Shown here: in pieces, positions 3,330 through 23,325 of the stretch
Layout: each line of letters opens with the position of its first letter
Numbering within the stretch: position 1 is the first letter of the stretch
Translations under genes and position numbers: made by a program
The notes under the pieces: generated by a model
Databases searched by the model: none
Seen by the model: the letters and a program-made list of their open reading frames with translations, nothing else
Told to the model about the DNA's origin: nothing
Source of the DNA: Saccharospirillum sp.
GTDB taxonomy: Bacteria; Pseudomonadota; Gammaproteobacteria; Pseudomonadales; Natronospirillaceae
DNA: 64,000 nt
Reading direction: 5' to 3'
Assembly: GCF_039982735.1 (NCBI RefSeq)
Contig: NZ_JBDWXV010000003.1
Span: forward strand, 76,898-140,897

Positions 3330-3356
3330 CAACACCCCTGTTTCAGAGGACATCGT

Positions 3357-5908: not shown

Positions 5909-7993
5909 CTACAACTGGAATCGTTTAATCGCCTGGTCAAGATGATCGGCGATTTCATTAAGTTCGGCGGTTCTCTGAACAGTCGACTCAAAGTCTGCTG
6001 CCACGACGGCACCAGTGTCACTAATGGTATTGGTGCGTTTGGTGATGTCTTCCGAGACCGCCTGCTGTTCGTCCGTGGCCACAGAAACCTGCCCATTAAG
6101 TTCGCTTACACGGGCGATGAAAGTGAGGTATTCGCTGAATGCTCCTTGCACATCGCCGACGCGACCGGAAATGTCATTCGCATCTTTTACGCTGGTAGAG
6201 ATAGACGCTACCGCCTCCCGGGACCCTGCCATCACACAGTCTATTTTTTCCGCAATTTCCTGGGTGTAGGTTTGCGTGCGACTGGCCAGTGTACGAACTT
6301 CATCGGCCACAACGGCAAACCCTCTTCCCTGCTCGCCAGCTCGTGCTGCTTCAATAGCAGCGTTGAGAGCCAGAAGATTGGTTTGCTCTGTGATATTTCT
6401 GATTACGTCGAGAATCTGGTCAATACCGGCTACTTCGCCATCAAGCGTCTCTATAACACCGGTCGCTTCCTGCATGGAAACGGTCAGTTTTTGATTGGAA
6501 TTAACGGCGGCTCTGACCGCCGTTTCTATATCATGAGCTCGCTCCTCGCTGCGCACCATTTCACCTGCAGCCTGCCGGGTATTATGTGCCACGTCACGAA
6601 CACTGGCTGCCATTTCAGTGACCGCCGCCGCCACCGAGTTGAGATCTTCACTCTGAAGGTTTAGGCGGGACCGCACAGACTTCGTTGATTCAGCAGTATC
6701 TGTGGAAATTGCATTAATATCGCGGTTAAGGTCAGCAATCCTGACGATCATCTCTCTTATCTTGTCGACCAGTTGCTCGGTCGAGTGAAAAATCTCGCCA
6801 ATTTCATCATTAGGGTAATTACCCACCCTGGCGCTGAAATCACCGTTACCCACCTGCTTCATATACTTGCTCAGCCTGTGAATGGGACGGCGCACACTGC
6901 GCACCACAACCCAGGAGACCGCCAGACACAGCAGCAGTATGACAATTGTAGCCACGATGACGATGTAGCGACCAACCGCTACCTGATCCAGCGCCGCCTC
7001 ACTGATGCCTGTTACTGCGGTATCGACTTGCTGTGACAGTGCCTGAAGGTTTCCGCCCGTATTGGCAAGACTGGCTTGAACGGCCTCTATCTTACCGGGC
7101 AATTCTGAGCGTATATCCACAAAGAGGTTGGTTTGCCGGGCGATCAGTCCATCGTTGGCGGTTGCCAGACTGTTAACCTGGTCAAACAAGGGATCGATTG
7201 CATCGTTATAGTCAGCAAAAGCAGGGTCAGCATCGACCTGATCGAAGATATCAAAGGTTAGAGTGGCAACCGCATCCAGGCTGTCTCTAAGGTCTGCCTG
7301 GGCAGACTCAATAACATCCAGACTGTCAGCCAGGGAGGCATTGATCGCCAGCAAGCTGACAGTGTCGAACAGTCTCTGTAGCCGAAAGGCAAGGGTTACT
7401 GCTTCAGGCGCTTCCATTCGAGCGAGGTTGGTGTCAAATGCCGGACCGGCTTCGGCACGCAGCCGGTCTATTTCCCCTCTGACCTCGGTAATGCGGGTTT
7501 CGGCTTCTATGGAACGCTCGTGGGTATTCATGTTCAGCGCTACCCGTTCGAACTGCTCCCGCGCCTGCTGCACTGACTGCGTTAACCGCGCTTCTAGCTC
7601 TGGCGACTGACTCAGTAAGGGAAAGTCAGTCGCCAGTCTGTCTGCCCTCTCATTGAAAGCCTGGATGTCTGACTCGACTCTGCCACGAATGGTCGCCATG
7701 ACATCCGCTTGCCTCGCGTTATAGTGCTCGGCCGCACCGGTACTGATGTCTTTCAACGTCAACCTGGCATCTGCCAGTGCTTCCTTTACCGGCAAGGCCT
7801 CAGTAACAAGGGAGTTCACACTCTGGCTGGACTGTTGCAAACTGAACAGACTCACACCGAGCATACACAGCACACCAATACCGACTAGTCCAAAGCCGAC
7901 ACTCAGACGGGTCACCAGCGTCAGCCGCGGTAAACTGAGGTACTTTTTCAACACTGTGATCCGGGTCATTCCAAGGGAACTGACAACCATCAC
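5909..7993 (-). CDS. methyl-accepting chemotaxis protein
   Basis: Two TM helices flank a helical periplasmic domain, followed by HAMP (DEIGEI) and the signalling hairpin QTNLLALNAAIEAARAGEQGRGFAVVADEVR. AGGAGG RBS upstream; the start may be the ATG at 7990. Confidence 0.95.
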   Translation of the reverse strand: MMVVSSLGMTRITVLKKYLSLPRLTLVTRLSVGFGLVGIGVLCMLGVSLFSLQQSSQSVNSLVTEALPVKEALADARLTLKDISTGAAEHYNARQADVMATIRGRVESDIQAFNERADRLATDFPLLSQSPELEARLTQSVQQAREQFERVALNMNTHERSIEAETRITEVRGEIDRLRAEAGPAFDTNLARMEAPEAVTLAFRLQRLFDTVSLLAINASLADSLDVIESAQADLRDSLDAVATLTFDIFDQVDADPAFADYNDAIDPLFDQVNSLATANDGLIARQTNLFVDIRSELPGKIEAVQASLANTGGNLQALSQQVDTAVTGISEAALDQVAVGRYIVIVATIVILLLCLAVSWVVVRSVRRPIHRLSKYMKQVGNGDFSARVGNYPNDEIGEIFHSTEQLVDKIREMIVRIADLNRDINAISTDTAESTKSVRSRLNLQSEDLNSVAAAVTEMAASVRDVAHNTRQAAGEMVRSEERAHDIETAVRAAVNSNQKLTVSMQEATGVIETLDGEVAGIDQILDVIRNITEQTNLLALNAAIEAARAGEQGRGFAVVADEVRTLASRTQTYTQEIAEKIDCVMAGSREAVASISTSVKDANDISGRVGDVQGAFSEYLTFIARVSELNGQVSVATDEQQAVSEDITKRTNTISDTGAVVAADFESTVQRTAELNEIADHLDQAIKRFQL

Positions 7994-8187
7994 GGCCTCC
8001 TATTTGTTATTTTGGCCAGTGGTCTATAGATATTTTCTGTCACTGTTTGCTTTATCAGCAAGCCCCGGTTTCAGGCCGTTGCCACCGACATAGCACGCTA
8101 TCTCGATGGCTCAACATCCCTTGAACCGGGGTTGATATCAACGTGTTGGCTGTCCCCCCCCAGAAATGGAATATTACGCGCTTATCG

Positions 8188-8586
8188 TTAATGCTTGTGA
8201 CCACAGCTACCGCCTGAACCATGGCTGTGACCGCAGCTGCCGCCGTGACTGTGGCTATGTCCTTTAGCCGACCCGGTACTGACACCCCCGTGCACGGTGC
8301 GTCTACTGTTGACCGAGCCATAGACCGGGGTTTCCCGGCTATTGCTGTACATCTGTTGTGCTAGTGCAACGTTAGAGGCACAACCACAGGCAGTGGCAGC
8401 GGCACTTTTGTAGTTGACCTGGACGTGCTTTTTGAGCCCTTTCATGTGCAGTGCCGGAGCACCCATGATAACGCGCTCCAACAATTCTCCCGTCTCCGGA
8501 TGAGAGGTCAGTGCCGGGTCATGAATGCTGTGGGAGATCTCAAAGATCTCCCCGGAGTCGGTTGCCCGATAGGTGTAGGTAGGCAT
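8188..8586 (-). CDS. FmdB-like zinc-ribbon protein lacking canonical Cys, with His/Cys-rich tail
   Basis: MPTYTYR...GEIFEISHSIHD...HPETGELLERVI matches the FmdB pattern without the CxxC pairs. C-terminus is GHSHSHGGSCGHSHGSGGSCGHKH. Lies 22 nt downstream of the M24 gene. Confidence 0.75.
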   Translation of the reverse strand: MPTYTYRATDSGEIFEISHSIHDPALTSHPETGELLERVIMGAPALHMKGLKKHVQVNYKSAAATACGCASNVALAQQMYSNSRETPVYGSVNSRRTVHGGVSTGSAKGHSHSHGGSCGHSHGSGGSCGHKH

Positions 8587-8608
8587 AGTGTTTCCTCAAT
8601 TCCAATAC

Positions 8609-9913
8609 TTAATAGGGGTTCGCCACGAACAGATCCTGGGCTGGGAAAAGCGTGATGACCCGACAGCCATCAGCCGTCACCACAACTTCCTCTTCGATAC
8701 GGGCGGCGCCATTGCCATCTGCTGCCGGGCAGTAGGTCTCAAGGGCGAACACCATGCCTTCCTGCAGTTCAAACGGGTTCTCAAAGGAAACCAGTCGGCT
8801 GATGATGGGACGCTCATGAAGCGCAAGTCCAAGTCCATGCCCGAACTGCAGACCAAAGGCTTCCATTTCGCTTTGAAAGCCAAACTCGGTTGCTGCCGGC
8901 CATACGGCTGCAATCTTATCGGTGGTCATCCCCGGTCTGACCAGGTTAATAGCAGCGTCGATCCATTCGCGGGCTTTGCGATAGGCATCCACCTGGGCAA
9001 GCGTTTTACTGCCCACATTCAGCGTTCGGTAATAACAGGTGCGATAACCCATGTAAGACTGGATGATGTCAAAAAAAGCCTGATCGCCCGGACGATACAT
9101 GCGATCAGTAAAGTTATGTGGGTGTGGGCTGCAACGCTCCCCTGATACAGCGTTTATCGCCTCTACATCGTCCGACCCATTGTCATAAAGAAACTTGTTG
9201 GCGATGGCAACGAGCTCGTTCTCTCGTTTGCCTGGTTTCAGGTTGTCCGCTATCAACTGGTAACATCCATCGACCATCGATGCTGACTGATTCAGCAGGA
9301 TGATCTCATCCATGCTTTTGATCTGACGTGCATTCAGCATCACTTGCTGTACATCTCGAACATCGAGCCCTTGCTTTTGCAAGGCGAACAACATGGGCGG
9401 TTCACAGACATCCACACCGATGGGCATATCGGCAACCCCTTCGGACTGAAGAATATCGCGAATTTCTTTTGCCGCATTTTCGAATAGCCCGGCTTCTTCA
9501 GCCACGGAACCGCGCAAGCCCAACATGCCGGCACGCCAGTGATCGTTATCGAACCAGGGGTTATTCAATCGGTGGTGTGCCGCGGCACTGCCAAAGTCCC
9601 ACAGATAAGGGTCGGAATTACCCGTAAACAAGGCATACCGGCATATTTTGTCCCGCGACCACTCACCAATGACGCTGCTGGTGAGGTAACGAATGTTGTT
9701 GTTGTCGAAACACAACATGGCACCCAGGTCAGACTCACGAAGTGCCTGTCTGGCGCGTTCCACGCGATACTTGTGCAAACGTTTGAAGTCGACACGTTCT
9801 TCAAAATCAACATTCATACGCCCGGGTGCCGGTATAGGACGGCTCCAATCCCAGCGGGGGTCAAGTGCGTCGGTGTCAATGATGCTCGGCTCTACAATAA
9901 TGTTGTTACTCAT
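8609..9913 (-). CDS. M24 (Xaa-Pro peptidase/creatinase-like) metallohydrolase
   Basis: Creatinase-like N-domain plus pita-bread domain: FDIIQSYMGYRTC, GHGLGLALHERP, FALETY, RIEEEVVVT. Start moved to the ATG at 9913 (GAGAGG RBS). Confidence 0.88.
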   Translation of the reverse strand: MSNNIIVEPSIIDTDALDPRWDWSRPIPAPGRMNVDFEERVDFKRLHKYRVERARQALRESDLGAMLCFDNNNIRYLTSSVIGEWSRDKICRYALFTGNSDPYLWDFGSAAAHHRLNNPWFDNDHWRAGMLGLRGSVAEEAGLFENAAKEIRDILQSEGVADMPIGVDVCEPPMLFALQKQGLDVRDVQQVMLNARQIKSMDEIILLNQSASMVDGCYQLIADNLKPGKRENELVAIANKFLYDNGSDDVEAINAVSGERCSPHPHNFTDRMYRPGDQAFFDIIQSYMGYRTCYYRTLNVGSKTLAQVDAYRKAREWIDAAINLVRPGMTTDKIAAVWPAATEFGFQSEMEAFGLQFGHGLGLALHERPIISRLVSFENPFELQEGMVFALETYCPAADGNGAARIEEEVVVTADGCRVITLFPAQDLFVANPY

Positions 9914-9978
9914 GGTATTCCTCTCGCCCACGGTGTTGTGCCTGGCCACATCCCGGCACTTCACCACAGTGTCTTTGG

Positions 9979-11481
9979 TTATTTTGGTGTGATTCCGGAG
10001 ATCGCCTGGATCAGCTTATCTTCCGTTACATCTTCTGAGGTGAACGTTTTTATTATTTCGCCTGAGTACATGGCAACGATTCGGTCGGCAACATGCAATA
10101 CTTCGGGCATTTCCGAACTGATCACGATAACGGCGTAGCCACCGGCTGCGAGCTCCCGTATCAGCTTGTGAATTTCGGACTTGGAGCCTACGTCTATGCC
10201 TCGCGTTGGCTCATCAACAATCAGGACTTTCGGATGCATTGACAACCACTTGCCAATGACGATCTTCTGCTGGTTACCACCGGAGAGATTGCCCACGGTT
10301 TGTCGCCAGCCCGGTGTGCGAATATCCAGCCGATCCCGATACAGGTCGAAAAGCGCTACTTCTGCACCATCGGATACGAAAGGCCCTGCTTTCATGTCAT
10401 CAATCTGTGGCAACGTCATGTTGTCGCGACAGTTCATGCCAAGCACCAGGCCTTGCGTTTTACGGTCTTCAGGAACCAGGGAAATCCCTTCTCTAATAGC
10501 AGTAGCAGGCGAATTGATGACTGTTTCTTTGCCTTCCAGAAAGATCGCTCCTGAACTGGGTTGTCTGAGTCCAAACAGTGTTTCCGCTATTTCCGTTCTG
10601 CCCGCGCCCACCAAACCGTAAAACCCCAGGACTTCGCCGCACCGAACCTGAAAGCTAACGTTGTGGAATGAAGCCCCACAACTGAGATCTTTAACCTCAA
10701 TGGCAATCTCACCCAGCTCATGGTTAACAGGAGCACGGGACAAGTCGAGATTACGGCCAATCATCATTCGAGTAATGGCTTCCTCAGTGGTATCCGCCGT
10801 CAACACAGAATCCTGATACTGGCCGTCACGGAGCACACTGACCCGGTCGGTAATCTTGAAAATCTCCTCCATGCGATGGGATATATAAACAATGCCAACC
10901 CCCTGGCTCTTCAAGTCGTCGATTACTTCAAACAGGACCAGCTTCTCGGCATCGGTCAGTGAGGCGGTTGGTTCATCGAAAATCACCGCTTTGGCGTCCA
11001 CCGTCAAAGCCCGTGCAATCTCGACCATTTGCTGGTTGGCAATGGATAAATCCCCGACCCGGGTACGCGCATCGAAGTTCACTTTCAGGCGTGTTAGAAT
11101 CCCATCGGTTTTTTCAAAGAGTGTTTTCCAATCAACCCGACCCATCGACTTTCTCGGTAACTCACCCAGGTACACGTTTTCTGCCACAGACAGCTCTTCA
11201 GCGAGGCTGAGCTCCTGATGGATAAAAACGATGCCCTTATTCTTGGCATCGAGCGGGTTGGACATGACAACCGGCGTTTCAGCAACGTAGATCGTTCCAG
11301 CATCGGGTTGATAGATTCCGCCGAGTACTTTCATCAGCGTCGATTTTCCGGCACCGTTCTCTCCCATCAGCGCATGAACTTCACCTGCCATCACAGAAAG
11401 AGATACGTTATCGAGCGCCTTAACACCCGGAAATGCTTTGACAATGCCCTCCAGACGCAGGGCTGGCGTTGACTGAGTCAT
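9979..11481 (-). CDS. sugar ABC transporter ATP-binding protein (RbsA/CUT2 type)
   Basis: GENGAGKS Walker A, LSIANQQ, DEPT, and a second domain with LSGGNQQK and DEPTRGID. Confidence 0.95.
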   Translation of the reverse strand: MTQSTPALRLEGIVKAFPGVKALDNVSLSVMAGEVHALMGENGAGKSTLMKVLGGIYQPDAGTIYVAETPVVMSNPLDAKNKGIVFIHQELSLAEELSVAENVYLGELPRKSMGRVDWKTLFEKTDGILTRLKVNFDARTRVGDLSIANQQMVEIARALTVDAKAVIFDEPTASLTDAEKLVLFEVIDDLKSQGVGIVYISHRMEEIFKITDRVSVLRDGQYQDSVLTADTTEEAITRMMIGRNLDLSRAPVNHELGEIAIEVKDLSCGASFHNVSFQVRCGEVLGFYGLVGAGRTEIAETLFGLRQPSSGAIFLEGKETVINSPATAIREGISLVPEDRKTQGLVLGMNCRDNMTLPQIDDMKAGPFVSDGAEVALFDLYRDRLDIRTPGWRQTVGNLSGGNQQKIVIGKWLSMHPKVLIVDEPTRGIDVGSKSEIHKLIRELAAGGYAVIVISSEMPEVLHVADRIVAMYSGEIIKTFTSEDVTEDKLIQAISGITPK

Positions 11482-12482
11482 ACTTTTAACTCCTGTGCGC
11501 CCTTCACGTTGAGCTGGCGATCAATGAACAGAACCACAATCAGGATAAGGCCGAGAACCAGATTCACGGTTGAGGTATCAGCCCCAATGTAGCCCAGCCC
11601 TGTTCGCAGCAACTGGATAGCAATGACCCCTCCCAGGGTACCGATGATCGAGCCCGAACCACCGGCCAGCTTGGTACCACCCAGCACCACGGCGGTGATG
11701 ACCCACAATTCATACAACATGCCGTCATTCGGGTTTACCGAGCCCGATCCGGCGTAGAAAACGACCGCAGACAAGGCAGCCAGAAAGCCTATTAGCGCAA
11801 AATTGATCAACATATGCGGGCCTACCCGAATGCCTGCGTTGACGGCCGCATTCCGGTTGTCGCCTATCGCATACGCATTACGCCCGTGGACTGTGTAGCG
11901 GGTGATCAGCCAAACAACCAGAACGGTCAGCCCAAACACCCAGGTGGCTGTGTGTAATCCAAGAAATCGAGCCTCGGCAAGGTCGACCAGCGTCCAGTTG
12001 AGGTTTGACGTTGGGTTTTCACCGTTGAACATAAATACAAGACCACGATAGCCCAACATGGAACCCAGAGTGACGATGAAGGCATCGACGCCTGTCTTCC
12101 ACACGATCAACCCGTTTAAAGCGCCAAGTAAAACCCCGGTGGTCAAAGCAAGTAATACACTGGCAACAATTACCCAGTCGCCAATGCCCGAGAAAATACT
12201 CCAGGACAAACTGTCCAGCAGGATAATTCCCGCCATGGCAAAGATGGCCCCAACGCTCAAGTCAATGTTTCCGTTCACCATGACAATGGTCATACCGACA
12301 GCAATGATGCCAATGGGAGCGGACTGTTTGAGCAGAAGTAACATGTTTCCGCCATCCATGAACGCGACATCCGTTAACGACAAGTATTTTCCCGCAATAC
12401 TGAAAAATATGAGCTCAACAACAATGAACAACCAAATTGCGCTCGTGCTTAGGTTGCGTTTTATAAAATCAGAATTCATCAC
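11478..12482 (-). CDS. sugar ABC transporter permease (CUT2)
   Basis: Multiple TM helices; IDLSVG, FIVTLG, GRNAYAIGDN, AVVLGG motifs. Confidence 0.92.
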   Translation of the reverse strand: MMNSDFIKRNLSTSAIWLFIVVELIFFSIAGKYLSLTDVAFMDGGNMLLLLKQSAPIGIIAVGMTIVMVNGNIDLSVGAIFAMAGIILLDSLSWSIFSGIGDWVIVASVLLALTTGVLLGALNGLIVWKTGVDAFIVTLGSMLGYRGLVFMFNGENPTSNLNWTLVDLAEARFLGLHTATWVFGLTVLVVWLITRYTVHGRNAYAIGDNRNAAVNAGIRVGPHMLINFALIGFLAALSAVVFYAGSGSVNPNDGMLYELWVITAVVLGGTKLAGGSGSIIGTLGGVIAIQLLRTGLGYIGADTSTVNLVLGLILIVVLFIDRQLNVKGAQELKV

Positions 12483-12488
12483 CCGCTC

Positions 12489-13460
12489 CTATATCGTGGC
12501 CCAGAACTTGCCACGCTTGACTGAGATATCGAGCCACACCGCCAGGATGATAATGATCCACGTGATGACATACTGGATATAGAAGGGCCACCCAATCAGC
12601 AGGAGTCCGTTTTGAATGAAACCCAGAATCAATACGCCGATGACTGTCTTGAGAACCGTACCTGAACCCCCCAGAAGCGATGCACCTCCGAGAATGACAG
12701 CCGCGAGCACTTCCAGCTCCAGGCCTTGGCCAACCGTATTTTGGCTACCCATTGAACGACTGGCCTGAATCAACCCGGCCGTTGCCACGCAAAACGCTGA
12801 AATGAGATAACAGGTAAATACGGTACGGGCTCTGGGTATGCCAGAAAAAGACGCGGCGGTTGAGTTGCCACCGACGGCATAAACCTTCCTTCCGAACGGA
12901 GTTTTTGCCAGGAGTACGCCAAGAAATGCAGCCAGTGCGACAAACAGGATAATCGGCACGGGCAAGCCAAGAATTTCCCCCTGCCCGAAGAAGCTGAACC
13001 AGGTGCCTGCTTTGTCGTCAATATCCATGTTCTTACCGCCTGAATAGGTCAGCGTCAGTCCATGGATGGCCGAGAGCATGCCAAGGGTTACAATCAGGGA
13101 GTTGAGTCGTAGATAACCAACCAGGAAACCGATGGTCCCGCCCAAACCGAGTGTCATTAAGTACATGGTTGGAATGGCCAGGCTGGGCCCTAATTTATCG
13201 TGCAGATCAAGCACCACAATCGTGGAGAAAGACATCATGGAGCCGACCGACAAGTCGAGATTCCCGCTGATGACGACAAAGGTCACGCCAAGAGCCATCA
13301 CACCCAGAATCGCCGATGATCTGACCACGCTTTGTAGATTGTCCAACGACAGAAACTTGGGACTAGCAAGCGCAAAAACCACCATAAACACCACGAATGC
13401 GATGAGAATGCCTTGATTGCCAATCACCGTAAGAATTCGTTTTCTGGCTAGATTTGCCAT
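12489..13460 (-). CDS. sugar ABC transporter permease (CUT2)
   Basis: LDLSVGS, LIVTLG, FGRKVYAVGGN, AAVILGG motifs. Confidence 0.92.
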   Translation of the reverse strand: MANLARKRILTVIGNQGILIAFVVFMVVFALASPKFLSLDNLQSVVRSSAILGVMALGVTFVVISGNLDLSVGSMMSFSTIVVLDLHDKLGPSLAIPTMYLMTLGLGGTIGFLVGYLRLNSLIVTLGMLSAIHGLTLTYSGGKNMDIDDKAGTWFSFFGQGEILGLPVPIILFVALAAFLGVLLAKTPFGRKVYAVGGNSTAASFSGIPRARTVFTCYLISAFCVATAGLIQASRSMGSQNTVGQGLELEVLAAVILGGASLLGGSGTVLKTVIGVLILGFIQNGLLLIGWPFYIQYVITWIIIILAVWLDISVKRGKFWATI

Positions 13461-13504
13461 ATGGGTATCCCTGAAACCGTATTGTTTTTATTAAGGTTAA
13501 AGAG

Positions 13505-13537
13505 TGCCCCAGGCATTCGATTGAACGCCTTGGGGCA
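13505..13537 (-). promoter_or_regulatory. stem-loop between SBP and permease genes (mRNA stabiliser or partial terminator)
   Basis: TGCCCCAGGC...GCCTTGGGGCA hairpin with one bulge, in the SBP-permease spacer. Confidence 0.5.
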
Positions 13538-13589
13538 TTGACTTTTGGGAGTTTTAGGGCACCACTGGGCACCCCACCCAAAACCGGTA

Positions 13590-14543
13590 TCAGAATACTG
13601 GACGGGTAAACTCATCCATATTGTCTTGAGTGATTTTCGGCGTATCGAAATAGTTCAGGAAAGGAACGTCATTTCCTTCCAGAATTTCAATGGCGGTCAG
13701 CAGAGCCGCTTCTGCGTCATCTACAGGAGACTGGTAGATTGAACCCCAATAGTCGCCTTCAGCCATGGCATCGTAGCCGACAGAGAAATTGGTGGCGCCA
13801 ACGAAAATGATGCCATCGCGACCTGCTGCGCGAGCAGCGTTCAGTGCGCCAACACCCATGTTGTCGTCGCCTGAATAGACGCCGTCGATGTCATCGTACT
13901 TGGTCAAGAAGGCTTCCATCACCTGTTGAGACCGCTCCCGGTTCCAGTCACCAGGTTGCGTTTCCATCAGGTCTACATTGGGGCAAACCTCGGGCAGACG
14001 GTCCTCAAAACCAGCCGCACGTTCAATAGCCGTGGTGTAACCAGGTTGTCCTGAGATTTGTACAACTTTGGCTTCGTTCTCGATCCCCATGTCCTTGAAC
14101 TTGTCGCACATGATCTCGGCAGAGCGGCTGCCCTGGGTCACGTTATCCGGACCTGAGAAGGAGCGAATGAAATCAAAGCCCTGTTCAGCAATGTTTGAGT
14201 TGGTTACAACCACAGGGATACCGGCATTGTGGGCTCTGCGGACGGCCGGAATGACAGCTTCGCCATTGGTTGGCCAGATGATAATCGCGTCAACTTCCTG
14301 TTGAATGAGTGAATCCACCTGGGCAATTTGACGTGCAACATCACCCCCGGCGTCAAGCACGACGGCGCGAACCTCATCATTGGCGTCTGCGGCCGCGATA
14401 AAGGCGCTTTCATAGGTCGTCTGGTAGCTATCAACACCCACGTTATTCTGTGTGATACCAATTCTCATTTCGGCCACCGCCAGGGCTGGACCCATTAACA
14501 CGGTGGCAGTTACAGCGGTTGCTAGTAGTGTTTTAGTGCTCAT
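13590..14543 (-). CDS. sugar ABC transporter periplasmic binding protein (RbsB-like)
   Basis: Signal peptide, DAGGDVARQIAQV, VDAIIIWP, IPVVVTN, SGDDNMGVGA. Rich in acidic residues. Confidence 0.92.
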   Translation of the reverse strand: MSTKTLLATAVTATVLMGPALAVAEMRIGITQNNVGVDSYQTTYESAFIAAADANDEVRAVVLDAGGDVARQIAQVDSLIQQEVDAIIIWPTNGEAVIPAVRRAHNAGIPVVVTNSNIAEQGFDFIRSFSGPDNVTQGSRSAEIMCDKFKDMGIENEAKVVQISGQPGYTTAIERAAGFEDRLPEVCPNVDLMETQPGDWNRERSQQVMEAFLTKYDDIDGVYSGDDNMGVGALNAARAAGRDGIIFVGATNFSVGYDAMAEGDYWGSIYQSPVDDAEAALLTAIEILEGNDVPFLNYFDTPKITQDNMDEFTRPVF

Positions 14544-14678
14544 TTTTACTCTCCGTTATTTTTGTTCTGCTTTACTGCGTTACTGCTGCATCAGCTCGGT
14601 CAACGGCAAGTTACGCATTCCCAGTTTGAAACGGGCTGGATAACCATACCCCCGGCCGCATGTTGAAAAACCCCCCAA

Positions 14679-14753
14679 TATATCCAGTTTGGATATACCA
14701 TATCCATTTTGGACATCATAATGGTTAATATACTTACGCTCTCGGAGTATATT
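14679..14753. promoter_or_regulatory. divergent promoter region with tandem palindromic operators
   Basis: TATATCCA-GTT-TGGATATA (14679-14697, perfect), ATATCCA-TTT-TGGACAT (14700-14716, one mismatch), and AATATACT-N11-AGTATATT (14727-14753, perfect). Confidence 0.65.
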
Positions 14754-14825
14754 CAGTTCCCTAATAAGAACTAATTGCGGTCCACTGCATTTCAGTCGGC
14801 CCAGGCTAGGCACGGAGCGGTCTTT

Positions 14826-16571
14826 ATGTCGTCAATGCACCACAACTCGGTAGACAGAATTTCGGTGTTGGCCGCCCCGGATGAAGGCGTATTGCGCTTC
14901 CTCGACTACATGGACGAGCACATGCTGGCCTTCGAGTCGGCTCATTCACTGTTCAAACCGAATGCCCATATTCGTATGTGTGTTGAGCTCCTGAGGCGTC
15001 ATTTTCAGGGAAAAGTCACCTCGCCAACGCTGCTGATCGATATCAGTGGCGTACCCTATGCCACCGCTACCCGCCGGTTAAATGAACTGGTCGAATCAGG
15101 CTTGATTAACCGCAGAGCGCGCCACAAAAGCGAACGCAGCTTCACCTTGCACCCCAGCGATCAGCTTCTGTCTCTCTGGATCCAAATGGCCAAAGACAAC
15201 AACCTGCTGATCAACAGTACGGTCAATCTGGCGGATCAAAAGCATGAGCCCGACGAACGTTTCTTTGGCAGTGACTACTTCACTGAACGCCTGGGGCCAC
15301 CGCTGAATGTGCTGAGTACACCCCTGTCTCTGGCCGGCGGCCTGCGTATGCTGTCGCACAGCGACCCTACCTTCCTGATCATGAACAACCTCAAACGTCA
15401 TTTCGAACTGATTGTTGGCTGCCCCATCCATCACCGTTCCTACTCCCTGGATAAGCTGTATGACGAAGCTGTTGAAAATTCGAGTCGTGACAAAAGCAGT
15501 TACGATCTGGTTGCAGTGAACTTCCCGTGGATTGGCGAATTTGCCGAGCGCGGCATGCTATTGCCACTGGATACACTGATCGACATCGAGGCACTGAGCC
15601 CGACAGACTTTCACGCAGCCAGCTGGCGGGCATCCCACTGGGGTGGCCGTTGCTATGGCATTCCGGTAGAGACGACCTCCGAAGTATTGATGTACCGGAC
15701 CGATCTCTTTGCTCAGGAAGGCATTGAGCCGCCTACCACGATCGATGAGTTGTTAGCCGTTGCGGAAAAACTGCATAAACCGGAAAAGCAGATCTATGGT
15801 ATCGCCTGGAACGCAGCGAGAGGCACCGCGCTGAGCCATACCTTTATGATGGCGATGGCCGATTTTGGTCAACCGATCATTGATTTGGCCCCGGATGGCG
15901 AAGAGTTTTCAATTGCGGGCCTGGGCAGTCACAAGTATCGATCAATGATCGATTCAGAGGCGGGCCTGTCTGCTGCAAGATTCCTGCTGGAGCTTCTGAA
16001 GTACTCGCCTCCGGGCATTCTGAACATGTCCTGGTATGAGCGCACCAAAAGTTATGCCCAGGGCCAGGTCGCAATGACCTACAGTTTTTCCCAGATGACG
16101 CCCTACTTCGAAGATGACGACAATTCCCCGGCCAAAGACAATACCGGCTTCATCGCGCACCCGGCCGGTTCGGGCAAGAAACCCATTTCTCCACTGGGCG
16201 GCTTTGTGCTGGGCATTCCCAGCAATTTAAGCGAGCGGCGCAGGCAGGAAGCCGCCATCGCACTGGAAACATTCACCTCAGAACGGGCTCAGAGCCTCTA
16301 TGTCAAAAATGGCAGCCGCGGTTGTTCACGGTATTCGGCGAGCGAAGACCCCAACATCCGCATTAACTCACCGATCTTCGATGCGGTGGACCAATTGGCC
16401 ATTCAGGACCAACTGCAGGCATGGCCAAGACCACCCACTCCCGAGTTTGGCGCGATAACCCAGTTCTGCGGCGTTGTATTGCACGAAATGCTGCGCGGGG
16501 TCATCACACCCGAAGAGGCCCTGTCTCGGGCTCACGAAGGTGTCCAAAAACTCATCGAAAACTGGCAATAA
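14826..16571 (+). CDS. winged-helix DNA-binding domain fused to family-1 solute-binding domain (probable one-component regulator)
   Basis: N-terminal SGVPYATATRRLNELVESGLINRR helix-turn-helix/wing, then an SBP_bac_1-like domain (YDLVAVNFPWIGEFA, YGIPVET, LMYRTDLF, GQVAM). No signal peptide. Start moved to the ATG at 14826. Confidence 0.75.
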   Translation: MSSMHHNSVDRISVLAAPDEGVLRFLDYMDEHMLAFESAHSLFKPNAHIRMCVELLRRHFQGKVTSPTLLIDISGVPYATATRRLNELVESGLINRRARHKSERSFTLHPSDQLLSLWIQMAKDNNLLINSTVNLADQKHEPDERFFGSDYFTERLGPPLNVLSTPLSLAGGLRMLSHSDPTFLIMNNLKRHFELIVGCPIHHRSYSLDKLYDEAVENSSRDKSSYDLVAVNFPWIGEFAERGMLLPLDTLIDIEALSPTDFHAASWRASHWGGRCYGIPVETTSEVLMYRTDLFAQEGIEPPTTIDELLAVAEKLHKPEKQIYGIAWNAARGTALSHTFMMAMADFGQPIIDLAPDGEEFSIAGLGSHKYRSMIDSEAGLSAARFLLELLKYSPPGILNMSWYERTKSYAQGQVAMTYSFSQMTPYFEDDDNSPAKDNTGFIAHPAGSGKKPISPLGGFVLGIPSNLSERRRQEAAIALETFTSERAQSLYVKNGSRGCSRYSASEDPNIRINSPIFDAVDQLAIQDQLQAWPRPPTPEFGAITQFCGVVLHEMLRGVITPEEALSRAHEGVQKLIENWQ

Positions 16572-16653
16572 CAACAACGCAGTAACACGGAAATTTTAAA
16601 ACCAATAGACGGTTAACAACCCACTTCAAACAACAACAAGACTGGAGAGAAAA

Positions 16654-17463
16654 ATGGATCCGAAAAGACTGGCAGGAAAAAACATCGTCATCACCGGTGC
16701 AGCTCAAGGTATGGGCGCAGCAAATGCCATGTACTTTGCCGCGCAAGGCGCCAACGTGGTACTGGGCGATTTGAATCTCGACGGTGCTCAAGCCGTGGCC
16801 GAGAGTATCAATGCAGCCGGCGTAGGCAAAGCCGTTGCAGTGTCCATGAACGTCACCAAACGCGAAGACCACACAGCCGCGGTTCAAGCCTGTGTTGATG
16901 CCTTTGGTTCAATCAATGTTTATCTGAACAATGCGGGTGTGAACAAGCCCAAGATGTTTCTGGACATTGATGACGACAACTGGGACCTGATCATGAATGT
17001 CAACGCCAAGGGTGTGCTCTATGGCATGCAGGAAGCGACTAAGCAAATGATCAAGCAAGGCCCAATGGAGGATCACCCGTACAAGATCATCAACGTTGGT
17101 AGCATTCTGTCCCGTGCCGCCTTTCTGGACGTCATCCCCTACTCTTGCTCGAAACATGCGGTGCTGGCCATGACTACGGGCGGTGCTAAAGCGCTCTGGG
17201 AGCATAAGATCACGGTTAACGGCTACGGCCCCGGGGTTGTAAAAACCGAATTGTGGGAACAACTGGACAAAGACCTGGTCGAGATCGGGATGTTTGAGAA
17301 AGAAGGCCAGTCGATGGACCACCTGGCCGAAACCATGATTCTGATGAAAAAACTGTCAACACCGGATGATGTCATCGGCACCGCAGCCTTCCTGTGCTCG
17401 GATGAAAGTGACTACATGACCGGCCAGCTACTGATGATTGATGGCGGCATCATCATGCAGTAA
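16654..17463 (+). CDS. classical SDR, acetoin/diacetyl reductase or polyol dehydrogenase-like
   Basis: TGAAQGMG, NNAG, catalytic YSCSK, PGVVKTELW, YMTGQLLMIDGG. Confidence 0.92.
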   Translation: MDPKRLAGKNIVITGAAQGMGAANAMYFAAQGANVVLGDLNLDGAQAVAESINAAGVGKAVAVSMNVTKREDHTAAVQACVDAFGSINVYLNNAGVNKPKMFLDIDDDNWDLIMNVNAKGVLYGMQEATKQMIKQGPMEDHPYKIINVGSILSRAAFLDVIPYSCSKHAVLAMTTGGAKALWEHKITVNGYGPGVVKTELWEQLDKDLVEIGMFEKEGQSMDHLAETMILMKKLSTPDDVIGTAAFLCSDESDYMTGQLLMIDGGIIMQ

Positions 17464-17643
17464 AGCCAACCGGCAATCAGCGCAGTACCCTGAGACACAG
17501 CGATCAGGCAGACAGGCTCTAACCTGACCGTTCCCGGTACTGCGCTGCGGCCACCTGGCTTGATGCACTTGCCCTCAATTTTCGCCATGCCGGACTTGCT
17601 GGCCGATGTCACAGAGCCGCCTGACCAACCACAGAGGTTTGCA

Positions 17644-18645
17644 ATGAGTAACTCGAAGAAAAAATTGAGTGCGGACGAAGCGTTGAGAATGTTTCGCCAG
17701 ATGGTTCGTATACGCACCTTTGAAAATAACGCGAATCAGCTCTATTTATCGGCAAAAATGCCCGGACTGACACACATGTATTCCGGGGAAGAAGCGGTCG
17801 CTGTTGGCATTTGTGAAGCACTGCTGCCAACCGACAAGATTACATCGACCCACCGCGGCCATGGCCACTGCGTAGCCAAAGGCGCAGACTTTAAAGCCAT
17901 GTTCTGTGAGTTGCTCGGAAAGGAAGAGGGCTATTGCCGTGGTAAGGGCGGCTCCATGCACATTGCGGATCAGTCAAACGGAAACCTTGGCGCCAATGCG
18001 ATTGTCGGCGGCTCGATGGGTATCGCAACCGGAGCAGCACTGACCTCCAAATTGAAGAAGACGGGCGATGTTGCCGTTTGTTTCTTCGGCGATGGTGCTA
18101 CCGCCCAGGGGTTAATGTACGAAGTGATGAACATGGCTGCCCTATGGAACCTTCCGGTCATCTACGCCTGTGAAAACAATGGCTATTCGGAGTACACAAA
18201 AACTGAAGAAATTGCAGCCGGCTCCATTACGGCTCGAGCTGAAGCCTTTGGAATTGAATCGTATCAGGTCGATGGGCAGGACGTTATAGCCGTTAACGAG
18301 CTGTCGCAAAAACTGGTCGATCGAGCTCGAAAAGGTGAAGGGCCTTTTTTCCTCGAACTGATGACCTACCGGTACCACGGTCACCATGTGGGCGATATTA
18401 ACCGTGAGTATTATCGTGCCAAGGATGAAGAAGCAGACTGGAAGGAAAACCGGGACCCAATCATTCGCATGCGCGCCTGGCTGGTTGACAACGGATATGC
18501 CACAGAGGAGGCATTGGATGAGCTTCACAAAGAAGTGACAGAAGATGCCGAGAATGCAGTCGAATATGCACTGAACGCCCCCTACCCGGATGTCTCGGAG
18601 GTGGACATGCACGTCTACACCGATATTGAGCATGTCTTAGCCTGA
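17644..18645 (+). CDS. TPP-dependent dehydrogenase E1 alpha subunit (AcoA/PdhA-like)
   Basis: GEEAVAVG, HRGHGH, GKGGSMH, GDGA...ENN TPP motif, TYRYHGH. Start moved to the ATG at 17644. Confidence 0.93.
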   Translation: MSNSKKKLSADEALRMFRQMVRIRTFENNANQLYLSAKMPGLTHMYSGEEAVAVGICEALLPTDKITSTHRGHGHCVAKGADFKAMFCELLGKEEGYCRGKGGSMHIADQSNGNLGANAIVGGSMGIATGAALTSKLKKTGDVAVCFFGDGATAQGLMYEVMNMAALWNLPVIYACENNGYSEYTKTEEIAAGSITARAEAFGIESYQVDGQDVIAVNELSQKLVDRARKGEGPFFLELMTYRYHGHHVGDINREYYRAKDEEADWKENRDPIIRMRAWLVDNGYATEEALDELHKEVTEDAENAVEYALNAPYPDVSEVDMHVYTDIEHVLA

Positions 18646-18655
18646 GGAGAACAGT

Positions 18656-19651
18656 ATGCGGAAAATTACGTTATCAAAGGCCGTCAACGAAGCACTGGCT
18701 GAAGAGATGCGCCACGACGAGACGGTCATCATTCTCGGCGAAGACGTGGCAGAAGCCGGTACGCCGTTCAAGGTTCTATCAGGCCTGGTCGAAGAGTTTG
18801 GTACGGAACGCGTTATTGATACCCCCATTTCCGAACCCGGCTTTATGGGTATTGGGGTAGGTGCCGCCATGACGGGGATGCGTCCGGTTGTCGATTTGAT
18901 GTTCGGTGACTTTATTTTTCTGATCATGGATCAGCTTTGCAACCAGGCCGCTAAAACTCACTACATGTCCGGTGGCAAACTGAGTGTCCCTCTGGTGCTG
19001 CGCACCAACATGGGGGCAACACGGCGCTCAGCGGCCCAGCATTCACAGTCGTTACACGCCATTGTTGCTCATATACCGGGCTTGAAAGTAGCGATGCCGT
19101 CTTCTGCGTATGAAGCCAAGGGCCTGCTGAAAACGGCCATTCGCGACAATAACCCGGTGGTCATTTTCGAAGACAAGCTGATGTATCAGGACTCAGCCGA
19201 AGTCCCTGAAGAGGAGTACAGCATTCCTTTCGGTGAAGCCTGCGTGAAACGCGAAGGCACAGACATCACCCTCATCGGCACCTCGTCGATGGTTCAGGTC
19301 TGTGAGAAAGCCGCTGAAATGCTTCAGGCGGTGGGCATCAGTGCCGAAGTCATCGACCCCCGCACCATAGTACCGCTCGATGAAAAAACCCTGGTTGAAT
19401 CGGCCAAGAAGACCGGTCGGGTCATCGTGGTTGACGAAGGTCACCAGAGCTTTGGTGTGACCTCTGAAATCGCCAGCCGGATCAATGAAAAAGCCTTTTA
19501 TCATCTGGATGCACCCACCACCCGAATCGGGGCGATGGATGTTCCGATTCCGTTCTCACCGGCCCTGGAGGACATTACTGTTCCGACACCGGAGCGGGTG
19601 TTCGAACAGGCCAAAAAGCTGGTCAGCGGGGAGCTAATCGATGCGGCATGA
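18656..19651 (+). CDS. TPP-dependent dehydrogenase E1 beta subunit (AcoB/PdhB-like)
   Basis: GEDVAEAG, DTPISE, QHSQSL, IPGLKV, GLLKTAIRDNNPV, EVIDPRT. Confidence 0.93.
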   Translation: MRKITLSKAVNEALAEEMRHDETVIILGEDVAEAGTPFKVLSGLVEEFGTERVIDTPISEPGFMGIGVGAAMTGMRPVVDLMFGDFIFLIMDQLCNQAAKTHYMSGGKLSVPLVLRTNMGATRRSAAQHSQSLHAIVAHIPGLKVAMPSSAYEAKGLLKTAIRDNNPVVIFEDKLMYQDSAEVPEEEYSIPFGEACVKREGTDITLIGTSSMVQVCEKAAEMLQAVGISAEVIDPRTIVPLDEKTLVESAKKTGRVIVVDEGHQSFGVTSEIASRINEKAFYHLDAPTTRIGAMDVPIPFSPALEDITVPTPERVFEQAKKLVSGELIDAA

Positions 19652-20954
19652 CATCATCATGCCCGCGTTGGGCATGGCACAGGATACCGGAACCCTGCTC
19701 GCCTGGCACAAATCGGAGGGTGAGGCGGTAACTCAGGGTGAAACCCTATTCGAGGTGGAAACCGACAAAACCACCATGGAAGTGGAGGCGCCGGCCAGCG
19801 GCTTCCTGGTTGGCATTACGGCCAGTGACGGGGATGAGGTACCGGTGGGCCAGGTCATCGCCATCATCAGCGATTCGGCCGACACACCGGCCAAGGAACC
19901 TGACGCTGGAACCGAGTCTGCCAAAGCGGACGCCCCCGCGCAGGCCCTGCCAGAAGGTAAGCCGGTTATCATGCCCGTGCTCGGCATGTCTCAGGACTCG
20001 GGCGTGCTGGTCGGGTGGAACAAGGAACCCGGTGACGCCGTCAAACAGGATGACATTTTGTTCGAAGTGGAAACGGACAAAAGTGTGGTTGAGGTGCCTG
20101 CTGGCCTGGATGGCTACCTGGCTGCCCGACTGGCGGCCGCTGGCGATGACGTACCCACGGGTGAAACCATCGCCATTATCAGTGAAGGAAAGGTCGCTGA
20201 CCCGGTTGACCGGGCTTATTCGCAATCGGCTACAACAACCGCCAGTACCGAAGAGCCGCCGGCCGAACAGGCGGCAACGCCCGCCGACACATCGCCTGCG
20301 CCCAAAAAGCCAGAAACCGCCAAGCGGCCTGCGCCTGCACCGGGTGATAAAATACTGGCCTCTCCCAAGTTGAAGCGCCTGGCCTACCAGGCTGGCTACG
20401 ACCTGGCGTTGCTCGCCGCCACGGGTCACCCCCAACCCTTTCATGCCAGCGACTTTACAGCGCTCAAAGACGCTAATACATCGGCACACAAACGCACAGG
20501 AACGGCCGTAACCCATGAAGCGGTTACCCGGCTGTCCGCACGGGTATCACCGGTTGAACTCGACGCCTTTCTTGGCTGGGCTTCCGACCATGTTGAAGCG
20601 GCCAACGACGCGAGTGTCATTGCTGCCTTTGCCGGGGCCAGCCTGGGCGATCATTCGACGGTGCGAATTCACAGGCGAGGCATCAGTGAAACCTATGCTG
20701 CACACACGCAATTGTCGAAAACCGTGGCCACGGAAGGCGAGCCTGACCTGATCGTACACGATCTGCGGGGAACCCTAATATCCTCGGCGGAACTCCCACC
20801 CGACTCGGCTCCTGTCATCTCTATTGTGGGCTCTGGCAATGAATTGATACTGACACTGACCAGTATTGATTCTCTGTTGGCCGGAAAAGACGCCGCCGTC
20901 GTACTCGACAACTTTGCCGGACGCATGGCAGATCCACTTCGGCACCTCTTCTAA
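19641..20954 (+). CDS. di-lipoyl carrier protein with PSBD and degenerate E2 core-like C-terminus
   Basis: Two lipoyl domains (EVETDKTTME, EVETDKSVVE), Ala/Pro linkers and PSBD (ILASPKLKRLA). The short C-terminal domain ends like an E2 (NFAGRMADPLRHL) but has no DHRxxxG. Confidence 0.8.
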   Translation: MRHDIIMPALGMAQDTGTLLAWHKSEGEAVTQGETLFEVETDKTTMEVEAPASGFLVGITASDGDEVPVGQVIAIISDSADTPAKEPDAGTESAKADAPAQALPEGKPVIMPVLGMSQDSGVLVGWNKEPGDAVKQDDILFEVETDKSVVEVPAGLDGYLAARLAAAGDDVPTGETIAIISEGKVADPVDRAYSQSATTTASTEEPPAEQAATPADTSPAPKKPETAKRPAPAPGDKILASPKLKRLAYQAGYDLALLAATGHPQPFHASDFTALKDANTSAHKRTGTAVTHEAVTRLSARVSPVELDAFLGWASDHVEAANDASVIAAFAGASLGDHSTVRIHRRGISETYAAHTQLSKTVATEGEPDLIVHDLRGTLISSAELPPDSAPVISIVGSGNELILTLTSIDSLLAGKDAAVVLDNFAGRMADPLRHLF

Positions 20955-20968
20955 AGAAAGGTATTGGT

Positions 20969-22426
20969 ATGTCACAACATAACGATTTCATCAAAACGGT
21001 TCCAACCGACCTTTATATCAATGGTCAGTTTGTTTCAGCGTCTGAAAATGGCCGCTTTGGCGTATTTAATCCGGCGACGGAAGAAGCGCTGGCATCCGTC
21101 GCATCAGCAGAAATTGCTGACGCCGATGCTGCCCTTGATGCCGCTGAAAAAGCCATGGTTGAGTGGGCAGCAAGAACACCGCGTGAACGCTCAGAAGTGC
21201 TTCGAAAAGCCTGGGAGTTGATTCAGGATCGGCTCGAAGAGTTCGCCTATCTGATCACACTGGAAAACGGCAAAGGTAAAACCGATGCCATGGGCGAAAT
21301 TCGCTATGCCGCCGAATTCTTTCGCTGGTTCGCGGAAGAAGCCGTTCGGGCAGACGGCCTGATTGCCCATGCACCGGCTTCCGGCGCAAGAATCATCGTG
21401 CAACACAAGCCCGCGGGCTTAGCTGTGCTGGTCACACCCTGGAATTACCCGGCCGCGATGGGCACCCGGAAAATTGCGCCTGCGCTGGCCGCCGGCTGCG
21501 GTGTCATTATCAAACCCGCCGCTGAAACACCGCTGACGATGCTGGCACTGATGCCATTGCTTGAAGAGGCGGGTGTACCGGCGGGTCTGGTAAACGTCTT
21601 GCCCACCAGTAAGCCAGCCGAGGTTGTCGATCATATGATGCACGACCCTCGCGTTCGTGTTGTGTCTTTCACAGGCTCAACAGCGGTTGGTCGCAAGCTG
21701 CTCAAATCAGCGGCGGATCAGGTACTCACGCCCGCAATGGAGCTTGGTGGCAATGCCCCTGTCATCGTATTCGAAGATGCCGATATGGATACCGCCATTG
21801 AAGGCGTGATGCTCGCCAAAATGCGCAACCTGGGTGAAGCCTGTACAGCTGCCAACCGGGTTTACGTGCATAAAGATGTGGCTGACGAATTCACCAAACG
21901 CCTGACGCAAACAATGTCGGCGTTAAAGATCGGTAATGGTGCAGACCCGGATGTTGACGTAGGTGCACTGGTTAATCTGGATACGCTTGAAAAGGTGGTG
22001 GGCTTTGTCAACGATGCGGTCGCGAAAGGCGCCAAAGTAGAATGTGGCGGACAGCGGCTACCAGGAAAAGGCTTTTTCTTTCCGCCAACGGTGCTCTCCA
22101 ATGTGCCGGAAAACGCTGACTGTGTGCACGATGAAATATTTGGGCCGGTCGTTGCCATTCAAACATTCGAAGATCAGGACGACGTGATTCGCCGGGCAAA
22201 CGATACCGAGTATGGCCTTGTGGCCTACGTTTTTTCCGAAAACATGAAGCGTGCCATGCAAGTATGCGAACGGCTGGACTACGGCATGGTCGGCCTGAAC
22301 CGTGGCCTTGTCAGCGACCCGGCTGCTCCGTTTGGTGGCAGTAAACAATCCGGCCTTGGTCGTGAGGGCGGTCATGAAGGCATGCTGGAATTCATGGAAA
22401 CCCAGTACATCTCGGCAACCTGGTAA
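20969..22426 (+). CDS. NAD(P)-dependent aldehyde dehydrogenase, succinate-semialdehyde dehydrogenase (GabD) type
   Basis: TPWNYP, KPAAETP, SFTGST, MELGGNAP, GEACTAAN, DEIFGPV, PFGGSKQSG. Confidence 0.92.
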   Translation: MSQHNDFIKTVPTDLYINGQFVSASENGRFGVFNPATEEALASVASAEIADADAALDAAEKAMVEWAARTPRERSEVLRKAWELIQDRLEEFAYLITLENGKGKTDAMGEIRYAAEFFRWFAEEAVRADGLIAHAPASGARIIVQHKPAGLAVLVTPWNYPAAMGTRKIAPALAAGCGVIIKPAAETPLTMLALMPLLEEAGVPAGLVNVLPTSKPAEVVDHMMHDPRVRVVSFTGSTAVGRKLLKSAADQVLTPAMELGGNAPVIVFEDADMDTAIEGVMLAKMRNLGEACTAANRVYVHKDVADEFTKRLTQTMSALKIGNGADPDVDVGALVNLDTLEKVVGFVNDAVAKGAKVECGGQRLPGKGFFFPPTVLSNVPENADCVHDEIFGPVVAIQTFEDQDDVIRRANDTEYGLVAYVFSENMKRAMQVCERLDYGMVGLNRGLVSDPAAPFGGSKQSGLGREGGHEGMLEFMETQYISATW

Positions 22427-22443
22427 AGAGAGAGGATGTTCGC

Positions 22444-23325
22444 ATGCACACTGTTGTTGCATCACCAAGCGTTCGAGCGCAAGCGCGTCGCTTATCGATC
22501 GATCTTCAAGCTCTGGCCGACCGACTGGGCAGAACCCAACTTACCATGGATGACCTCAACGGCCATCAGACACCGGAGCAGCCTGTGAACGGTTATAGCA
22601 GCTATTGGAACGTGGATCACCGTCAATTCGGACCGGTTGACGAGCAAAAGACCAGCAAAATCGACCGGGTTGCCGCTGCGAATTTGACCGCTGCCAATGC
22701 GGTGATTCCCCAGGTCACTCATCACGATGAGGTGGATGTCAGTGAAATCGAACGCCTACGCGCTCAGTATCGCAGTGAATCCTCCGCACGAGGGGTGAAA
22801 CTGACGACACTGCCTTTCTTCGTGAAGGCATTGGCCGTTTCATTGAAAAAGTTTCCAAAGTTCAATGCGTCCCTGAGTTCAGACGGTGACATCCTCCATA
22901 TGAAGAACTACGTTCATATCGGCATTGCAGTGGATACCGAACACGGACTGATGGTCCCGGTTATTCGGGATGCTGACAAAAAAGGCTTGTGGCAGATTGC
23001 GGCAGAGATCGTCGATCTGGCAACCCGCGCCAAGTCGAGAAAGCTGGGCCCGGATGAAATGGGGGGTGCCTCCATGACGATCACCAATCTTGGGGGAATA
23101 GGCGGTACTGGTTTCAGCCCAATCGTAAACCCGCCAGAGGTTGCGATTCTGGGTATTACCCGTATGCAGCAACAACCGGTATGGAATGGCGAAGCCTTCG
23201 TTGCAACACCGATAGTGCCACTGGACTTGAGTTATGATCATCGCGTCATTAACGGTGCCGTTGCCGCCCGTTTTCTCAATGACTATGCACGCAGCCTGGC
23301 GGACCCTCGTTTACTGTTGATATGA
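22444..23325 (+). CDS. E2 dihydrolipoamide acyltransferase catalytic subunit without lipoyl domains
   Basis: PSBD-like N-terminus (VASPSVRAQARRL), IGIAVDTEHGLMVPVI, ITNLGGIGG, PIVNPPEVAILG, LSYDHRVINGA. Confidence 0.9.
   Translation: MHTVVASPSVRAQARRLSIDLQALADRLGRTQLTMDDLNGHQTPEQPVNGYSSYWNVDHRQFGPVDEQKTSKIDRVAAANLTAANAVIPQVTHHDEVDVSEIERLRAQYRSESSARGVKLTTLPFFVKALAVSLKKFPKFNASLSSDGDILHMKNYVHIGIAVDTEHGLMVPVIRDADKKGLWQIAAEIVDLATRAKSRKLGPDEMGGASMTITNLGGIGGTGFSPIVNPPEVAILGITRMQQQPVWNGEAFVATPIVPLDLSYDHRVINGAVAARFLNDYARSLADPRLLLI

Follow-up and report, generated by a model that had tools for sequence, protein, structure and literature searches.

We have found that the gene at positions 14826..16571 (+) of a 64,000-nucleotide stretch of Saccharospirillum sp. 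DNA (contig NZ_JBDWXV010000003.1, positions 76,898 to 140,897; hereafter the window) encodes a 581-amino-acid protein, P0002, in which a predicted MarR-like winged helix-turn-helix (wHTH) domain is fused to a complete family-1 solute-binding protein (SBP) domain. We consider it very likely that P0002 is a cytoplasmic one-component regulator, with the MarR-like domain as its DNA-binding head and the SBP domain as its sensor, that acts through a local operator and, as we would favour, by ligand-relieved repression. The gene was delimited by its open reading frame (ORF), its translation, its domains and its full-length homologues; the ORF is uninterrupted and its ATG is preceded by a GGAG-type ribosome-binding site. 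Although the open frame extends over 14775-16571 (+), we rejected a longer product starting at the TTG at 14775, which the N-termini of orthologues do not support; they agree instead with a start at the ATG at 14826 (alignment A1).

The AlphaFold model of the full protein, built with 27 homologues, has a mean predicted local distance difference test (pLDDT) score of 75 and comprises a helical N-terminal domain, a linker and an alpha/beta domain that spans residues ~170-581. AlphaFold models, Foldseek and a profile match to the PDB place the MarR-like winged-helix domain at residues ~16-133 (14871..15224, +). Modelled alone, this domain reaches a pLDDT of 90.7 and has the order helix-helix-HTH-wing-helix, with helices at residues 18-39, 47-60, 67-73 and 78-90, a wing formed by strands 94-98 and 106-110, and a final helix at 112-133. 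Nearly all of its top ~50 Foldseek matches belong to the MarR family (probability 1.0, template-modelling (TM) score 0.43-0.54), among them ZitR, MftR (with DNA), MarR, HpaR, MepR and SlyA, and a profile of the domain finds the MarR protein 5eri in the PDB at E 6e-4. Over residues ~59-105 Pfam reports sub-threshold matches to MarR, MarR_2, TrmB and IclR-HTH (E 0.006-0.2) and to HTH_24. The predicted recognition helix, residues 78-90 (15057..15095, +), was located by invariant columns of A1 and by modelled DNA contacts; the residues P77-Y78-A79-T80-A81-x-R83-R84 are invariant or nearly so among orthologues, and P77, Y78, T80, A81 and R83 are invariant in those orthologues that share the candidate operator described below.

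A linker of residues ~134-169 (15225..15332, +), recognisable by its low pLDDT (<50 over residues 133-158) and by poorly conserved, variable columns in A1, leads into the solute-binding domain at residues ~170-581 (15333..16568, +), which is complete, MalE-type and CUT1-like and which we presume to be the ligand sensor. This domain is matched in Pfam by SBP_bac_1 (PF01547; E 6e-28, 99.1 bits against a cut-off of 26, residues 224-475) and by SBP_bac_8 (E 8e-21, 75.5 bits against a cut-off of 27), and NCBIfam, which has no model for P0002, returns just weak partial matches to MalE-type binding proteins. Foldseek comparison of the P0002 model with solved family-1 SBPs bears out a bilobed MalE-type fold: 5iai stands at the top (E 5e-23; TM 0.82, with normalisation to the target), and behind it come 1eu8, 6dtq and others, including trehalose/maltose-, sophoro-oligosaccharide-, sulfoquinovose- and trehalose-binding proteins; a sequence profile ranks the PDB in the same way (5iai at 1e-39, 1eu8 at 1e-30). 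Across the 27 sequences of A1, ~100 positions of the SBP domain are invariant, many of them Trp, His, Asp, Glu, Arg or Asn. P0002 thus carries a presumed ligand-binding input domain and a predicted DNA-binding output domain in one polypeptide, as one-component systems do, and Pfam finds no kinase or receiver domain in it.

A scan of the sequence and its hydropathy revealed no signal peptide, transmembrane segment, lipobox or twin-arginine translocation (Tat)-like motif in P0002, and the protein is predicted to be cytoplasmic. Its maximum 19-residue Kyte-Doolittle hydropathy is 1.14, as compared with 1.92 in the neighbouring exported CUT2 binding protein, which has a classical signal peptide, and none of 27 members of the fused family exceeds 1.42. 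The nearest unfused relatives that we recovered from a library of 1.8 billion proteins (418-451 amino acids, ~30-37% identity) all start with a signal peptide, in some cases with a lipobox. Because the signal peptide of these relatives is followed directly by a '...L..GDPF' motif that aligns to residues 171-183 of P0002, it appears to have been replaced in the fused family by ~165 amino acids of wHTH domain and linker. An earlier note on this DNA, made from the sequence alone, had read in the protein an N-terminal wHTH of about 130 amino acids, a full sugar-SBP fold behind it and neither signal peptide nor lipobox, and all three observations are borne out by the models, domain matches and hydropathy given here.

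The fusion is widely conserved. More than 1000 database proteins of 560-620 amino acids match P0002 over its full length, and relatives are encoded in 417 GTDB species genomes among those scanned, so the fusion is not an artefact of sequencing or assembly; the earlier note had named an erroneous joining of two genes as a possible failing of its reading, and the persistence of the fusion in hundreds of genomes rules this out. Among the best 150 representatives (50%-identity clusters), 71 have the N-terminal domain, 36 of them at full length, down to 23-30% identity. P0002 is present as a single copy in its own genome, independent genome assemblies contain the stretch that encodes it unchanged, and the closest named relative of the window is Saccharospirillum alexandrii (97%). 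The two sequencing runs that match best are themselves genome assemblies.

A conserved palindrome, specific to this locus, is a candidate operator for P0002. The 282-bp intergenic region between the regulator gene and a divergent transporter operon contains two copies: candidate operator 1, ATATCCAGTTTGGATAT (14680..14696), is a perfect 7-3-7 palindrome, and candidate operator 2, ATATCCATTTTGGACAT (14700..14716), has one mismatch and is placed 20 bp from the first. The consensus is a 17-bp palindrome, ATATCCA-N3-TGGATAT. We compared the proteins of this gene cluster with 80 related loci by tblastn, and 77 of these loci hold both the regulator and the transporter genes. Allowing up to two mismatches, we counted 87 sites in the intergenic regions between regulator and transporter of the 77 loci, which total 26.5 kb, and 0 in the 1.27 Mb that flank them; at least one site is present in 62 of the 77 loci, and in 25 there are two sites spaced 20-21 bp apart. 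In the 4.7-Mb genome that encodes P0002 just two sites have one mismatch or fewer, and both lie at the P0002 promoter region. A site with two mismatches at position 52080 of the window lies inside an ORF of 772 amino acids and is probably due to chance.

A variant of the palindrome is found further afield. At the locus of a relative with 27% identity (L092), a perfect ATATTCA-N3-TGAATAT precedes each of two fused-regulator genes; this genome is AT-rich, its fused regulators are 566 and 564 amino acids long, and the variant palindromes lie at 5879-5895 and 13534-13550 of that locus. The residues of the recognition helix differ in distant fused relatives that lack the operator motif, and the invariance of this predicted helix among orthologues matches the conservation of the half-sites. 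A consensus scan gave two weak promoter-like sites in the intergenic region. The one for the transporter operon, TGGATA-18-TATATT (14677..14706, -), is fully overlapped by the two candidate operators, which span its -35, spacer and -10; the one for the regulator and catabolic operon, TTAATA-17-TATATT (14725..14753, +), lies just downstream of operator 2, and the operators abut its -35.

The genes on either side of P0002 were assigned from Pfam, NCBIfam and conserved synteny. The divergent, presumed target operon (8609..14543, -) encodes an exported Peripla_BP_4 CUT2 binding protein (13590-14543), two BPD_transp_2 permeases, an ABC ATPase and an M24 hydrolase that is creatinase/prolidase/DddP-like. 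Downstream of the regulator gene, the presumed co-regulated genes (16654..23325, +) encode a short-chain dehydrogenase/reductase (SDR), E1 alpha, E1 beta, a two-lipoyl-domain carrier, an aldehyde dehydrogenase (ALDH) resembling succinate-semialdehyde dehydrogenase, and an E2 catalytic domain. The ALDH gene splits the E2, sitting as it does between the gene for the two-lipoyl-domain carrier and the separate gene for the E2 catalytic domain. No terminator-like site was found when the gap between the regulator and SDR genes, from 16571 to 16654, was scanned.

In every one of the 77 loci that have both genes, the regulator gene is divergent from a CUT2 SBP-permease-permease-ATPase operon, an SDR gene follows it and an M24 gene is alongside. 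Genes for E1, E2 and ALDH follow the regulator in about half of these loci, and about half are without E1 and E2; one of the latter (L012) has two more SDRs and a flavin mononucleotide-dependent hydroxy-acid dehydrogenase instead. In alphaproteobacterial loci the M24 gene comes after the SDR gene instead of closing the transporter operon, and the latter has an additional SDR gene inside it. No other regulator is present in the conserved block, nor did we find CUT1 (BPD_transp_1) permeases near P0002, the permeases being of the BPD_transp_2 (CUT2) type here and in the 77 related loci alike. Since the transporter is of the CUT2 type and has an exported binding protein of its own, the fused CUT1-type domain cannot be its receptor. 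Distant fused relatives keep similar company: one with 32% identity is divergent from E1a-E1b-E2-M24, one with 27% identity is divergent from SDR-M24-E1a-E1b-lipoyl-ALDH, with a second fused paralogue at that locus adjoining a CUT2 transporter, and one with 30% identity adjoins an SDR, an AP_endonuc_2 protein, another SDR and a CUT2 transporter.

The cluster at 8609-23325, with its CUT2 importer, M24 hydrolase, SDR, E1/E2 and ALDH, looks like a catabolic pathway. Directly adjoining it is a gene for a methyl-accepting chemotaxis protein with a TarH-type sensor (5909-7993, -), and further upstream lies a set of enzymes (230-4991, +) made up of an SDR, an aspartate-dehydrogenase-like protein, an ALDH and a three-domain thiamine pyrophosphate enzyme that is acetolactate-synthase-like. 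The earlier note had proposed that P0002 is a one-component regulator built by recruiting a transporter SBP, and this prediction gains support from the wHTH fold, the conserved fusion, the missing export signal, the CUT2 neighbour with its own SBP, and a palindrome that is conserved across Alpha- and Gammaproteobacteria in the regulator's own divergent promoter region.

In the mechanism that we propose, a MarR-like winged-helix dimer, held together by its MarR-like helices, would read the 17-bp palindrome, and both copies would be occupied in the promoter region that the regulator has in common with the divergent CUT2 operon. The C-terminal family-1 domain, its signal peptide lost, would serve inside the cell as a sensor of the Venus-flytrap kind; when it closes on the imported substrate, or on an early intermediate of the pathway, the way in which the two DNA-binding heads are held would shift, and this shift would in turn switch the transporter operon and the regulator-SDR-E1/E2-ALDH operon. 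With the tandem operators spaced by two helical turns, the SBP domains may form a bridge between the two dimers that occupy them. Two considerations lead us to favour autoregulation and repression relieved by the ligand: the core promoter predicted for the transporter operon is overlapped by the operators, and MarR-type proteins are mostly repressors. The ligand is probably polyol-like or an otherwise hydroxylated small molecule. We guess this class from the nearest solved relatives, which are 4rs3, 5hko and 4rsm for the CUT2 binding protein and 5iai and 4rya for the sensor domain, and all of which hold polyols, and from the abundance of SDRs in the loci of P0002-type regulators.

Several points weigh against this reading. 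P0002 misses the Pfam gathering scores for MarR (16.9 against 24.6 bits) and MarR_2 (16.8 against 27 bits), and we therefore regard its N-terminal domain as a MarR-like winged helix by modelled fold and not as a member by the Pfam threshold. Fifteen of the 77 loci have no site at up to two mismatches, and neither the motif nor an obvious palindrome was found at the loci of two more distant relatives (L089, 32% identity, and L091, 30%). Two N-terminal domains modelled together with a 25-bp operator fragment give an ipSAE of 0.73, compared with 0.07-0.32 when the DNA was shuffled and 0.26 when an unrelated protein took their place, with contacts from residues 66-69, 76-80, 82-84 and 102-106 in the recognition helix and the wing, but the score of this predictor does not separate protein-DNA binders from non-binders and is a hint at best. 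That the sensor domain retains ligand binding is deduced solely from its strong sequence conservation. Two putative RNA runs from near relatives hold short contigs over parts of the gene and its neighbours, but they are unstranded and may include carried-over DNA, and gene fragments in such libraries are no proof of transcription. Finally, the promoter scan performed at chance level, with 2 sites found against 1.9 expected, which bears on the choice between repressor and activator.

With the same architecture and the same operator, P0002 could be a ligand-dependent activator of the regulator and catabolic operon on the plus strand, or a dual regulator, and this we consider unlikely without dismissing it. 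The operators lie immediately upstream of the plus-strand -35 (14725-14730). If transcription is assumed to start near 14760, their centres fall at about -52 and -72, where an activator could sit, and activators, too, are known with tandem sites spaced by two helical turns. Yet the same operators cover the entire minus-strand promoter-like site, the general habit of MarR-fold regulators is to repress, and the two promoter predictions from which these distances are taken are the ones that do no better than chance. A second alternative is that the SBP domain has lost its capacity for small-molecule binding and serves for oligomerisation, as a scaffold or as the sensor of a protein partner, with the wHTH domain still binding DNA. 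In its favour, the regulator evolves much faster than the genes around it: its alpha- and gammaproteobacterial orthologues share ~50% identity, whereas the figure is 75-89% for the transporter, E1 and ALDH genes. Yet many of the ~100 invariant positions of the SBP domain are of residue types typical of sugar pockets, and the fused family, down to members with 27-32% identity, is strictly inherited along with genes for uptake and oxidation, as would suit a metabolite sensor; we regard the loss of small-molecule binding as improbable.

We give still less weight, indeed next to none, to the idea that P0002 is an exported ABC-transporter SBP whose N-terminus is unusually extended, or that the fusion is an error of assembly or annotation. 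This is what the source annotations of its homologues would imply, all of which read 'extracellular solute-binding protein' or 'ABC transporter substrate-binding protein'. Against them stand the lack of any hydrophobic segment, lipobox or Tat-like motif in a protein whose unfused relatives carry signal peptides, the adjacent CUT2 transporter with a Peripla_BP_4 binding protein of its own and no CUT1 permeases nearby, the MarR fold of the N-terminal domain, and the occurrence of the full-length fusion in 417 genomes as well as in independent assemblies.

The regulator tree contains a well-supported gammaproteobacterial clade (Saccharospirillaceae, Natronospirillaceae and a metagenome-assembled genome (MAG) of Oceanospirillaceae), which a long branch parts from the alphaproteobacterial proteins (Roseobacteraceae, Paracoccaceae, Hoeflea and Stappiaceae). 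Within the Alphaproteobacteria the tree departs from taxonomy. In one MAG labelled Ectothiorhodospiraceae (L042) the regulator is nested among Roseovarius sequences, which points to horizontal transfer or to a binning error. The G+C content of the cluster region (8000-16000) is 0.515-0.535, below that of most of the window (0.56-0.59). The gap in identity between the regulator and its neighbours, the lower G+C content and a tree that does not follow taxonomy suggest horizontal spread of the island together with fast evolution of the regulator.

P0002 probably stands for the gammaproteobacterial branch of a family of allosteric transcription factors that is large and functionally uncharacterised and in which a MalE-type SBP has lost its signal peptide and does the sensing for a MarR-like head; the regulator family is well supported by computation and is known from sequence and models. 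If this is correct, marine Alpha- and Gammaproteobacteria would have hundreds of mis-annotated regulators of a catabolic pathway for a polyol-like compound, now entered as 'extracellular solute-binding proteins'. Correcting this would remove a systematic error, since listing such proteins as transporter components inflates counts of transporters and hides a family of regulators. The ligand of the regulator would also point to the substrate of a widespread marine catabolic cluster comprising a CUT2 importer, SDRs, an M24 hydrolase, E1/E2 and an ALDH. We note that the operator is simple, conserved and confined to one locus per genome, which makes it an easy target for electrophoretic mobility shift assays and reporter work, and that the protein would offer a natural scaffold for biosensors of the maltose-binding protein (MBP) type. 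A full-text literature search found no published description of a wHTH-family-1 SBP regulator or of its gene cluster, which is no proof of novelty, and no such regulator was found in a review on signalling by SBPs (PMC8050422).

For the N-terminal domain the closest likeness is to the MarR family, with which P0002 shares the order helix, helix, HTH, beta-wing and long C-terminal helix, as well as a palindrome in its own divergent promoter region that is positioned for autoregulation. Classical MarR proteins have ~140-170 amino acids and bind their ligands within the wHTH domain or the dimer interface, whereas P0002 has an appended transporter-type binding domain of 410 amino acids as its presumed sensor. 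The same logic is found in SgrR of E. coli, a one-component, sugar-related regulator in which a cytoplasmic wHTH head is joined to a full ABC-type SBP domain without a signal peptide. SgrR consists, however, of an SgrR_N winged helix and an SBP_bac_5 domain, and P0002, whose head is MarR-like and whose sensor is of family 1 (SBP_bac_1/8), cannot be placed in that family, as neither SgrR_N nor SBP_bac_5 is among its Pfam matches up to E = 1. The LacI/GalR and LysR-type regulators are likewise allosteric transcription factors with a bilobed sensor of the periplasmic-binding-protein (PBP) fold, LacI combining HTH_LacI with a class I PBP and LysR combining HTH_1 with a small class II domain. We rejected both families for P0002, in which Pfam finds no match to HTH_LacI, Peripla_BP_1/3, HTH_1 or LysR_substrate. 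Unlike theirs, the sensor of P0002 is full-size and can be recognised as a CUT1 transporter SBP, and the unfused proteins closest to it are still exported, which makes its recruitment from an exported protein unusually clear; beside LacI, LysR and SgrR, it would be a fourth natural use of the PBP fold as the sensor of a transcription factor.

Architectural look-alikes are clusters in the ESM Atlas, ranked by a language-model feature search, that fuse a GntR domain (PF00392) to SBP_bac_1. Like P0002 they join an N-terminal wHTH to a family-1 SBP, and we compared them by architecture; they differ in their head, in their shorter length (440-490 amino acids) and in their phyla (Chloroflexota, Bacillota and Actinomycetota), and we know of no characterised member. 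One further ESM Atlas cluster joins Peripla_BP_1 with SBP_bac_1 (744 amino acids). Cytoplasmic sensors may have been drawn from family-1 SBP domains on more than one occasion, and the earlier note's description of a family-1 sensor as not a textbook architecture, although fair, does not make it unique. Lastly, a study of synthetic chimeras reports that engineered fusions of a PBP with a DNA-binding domain give ligand-responsive regulators that can be used as biosensors (Juarez et al. 2018, PMC6079105). Their design principle, as described there, is that of P0002, but they are artificial products of laboratory selection, whereas the P0002 family is natural and widespread; if our reading is correct, the 'MBP-biosensor' design of synthetic biologists had already been built by nature.

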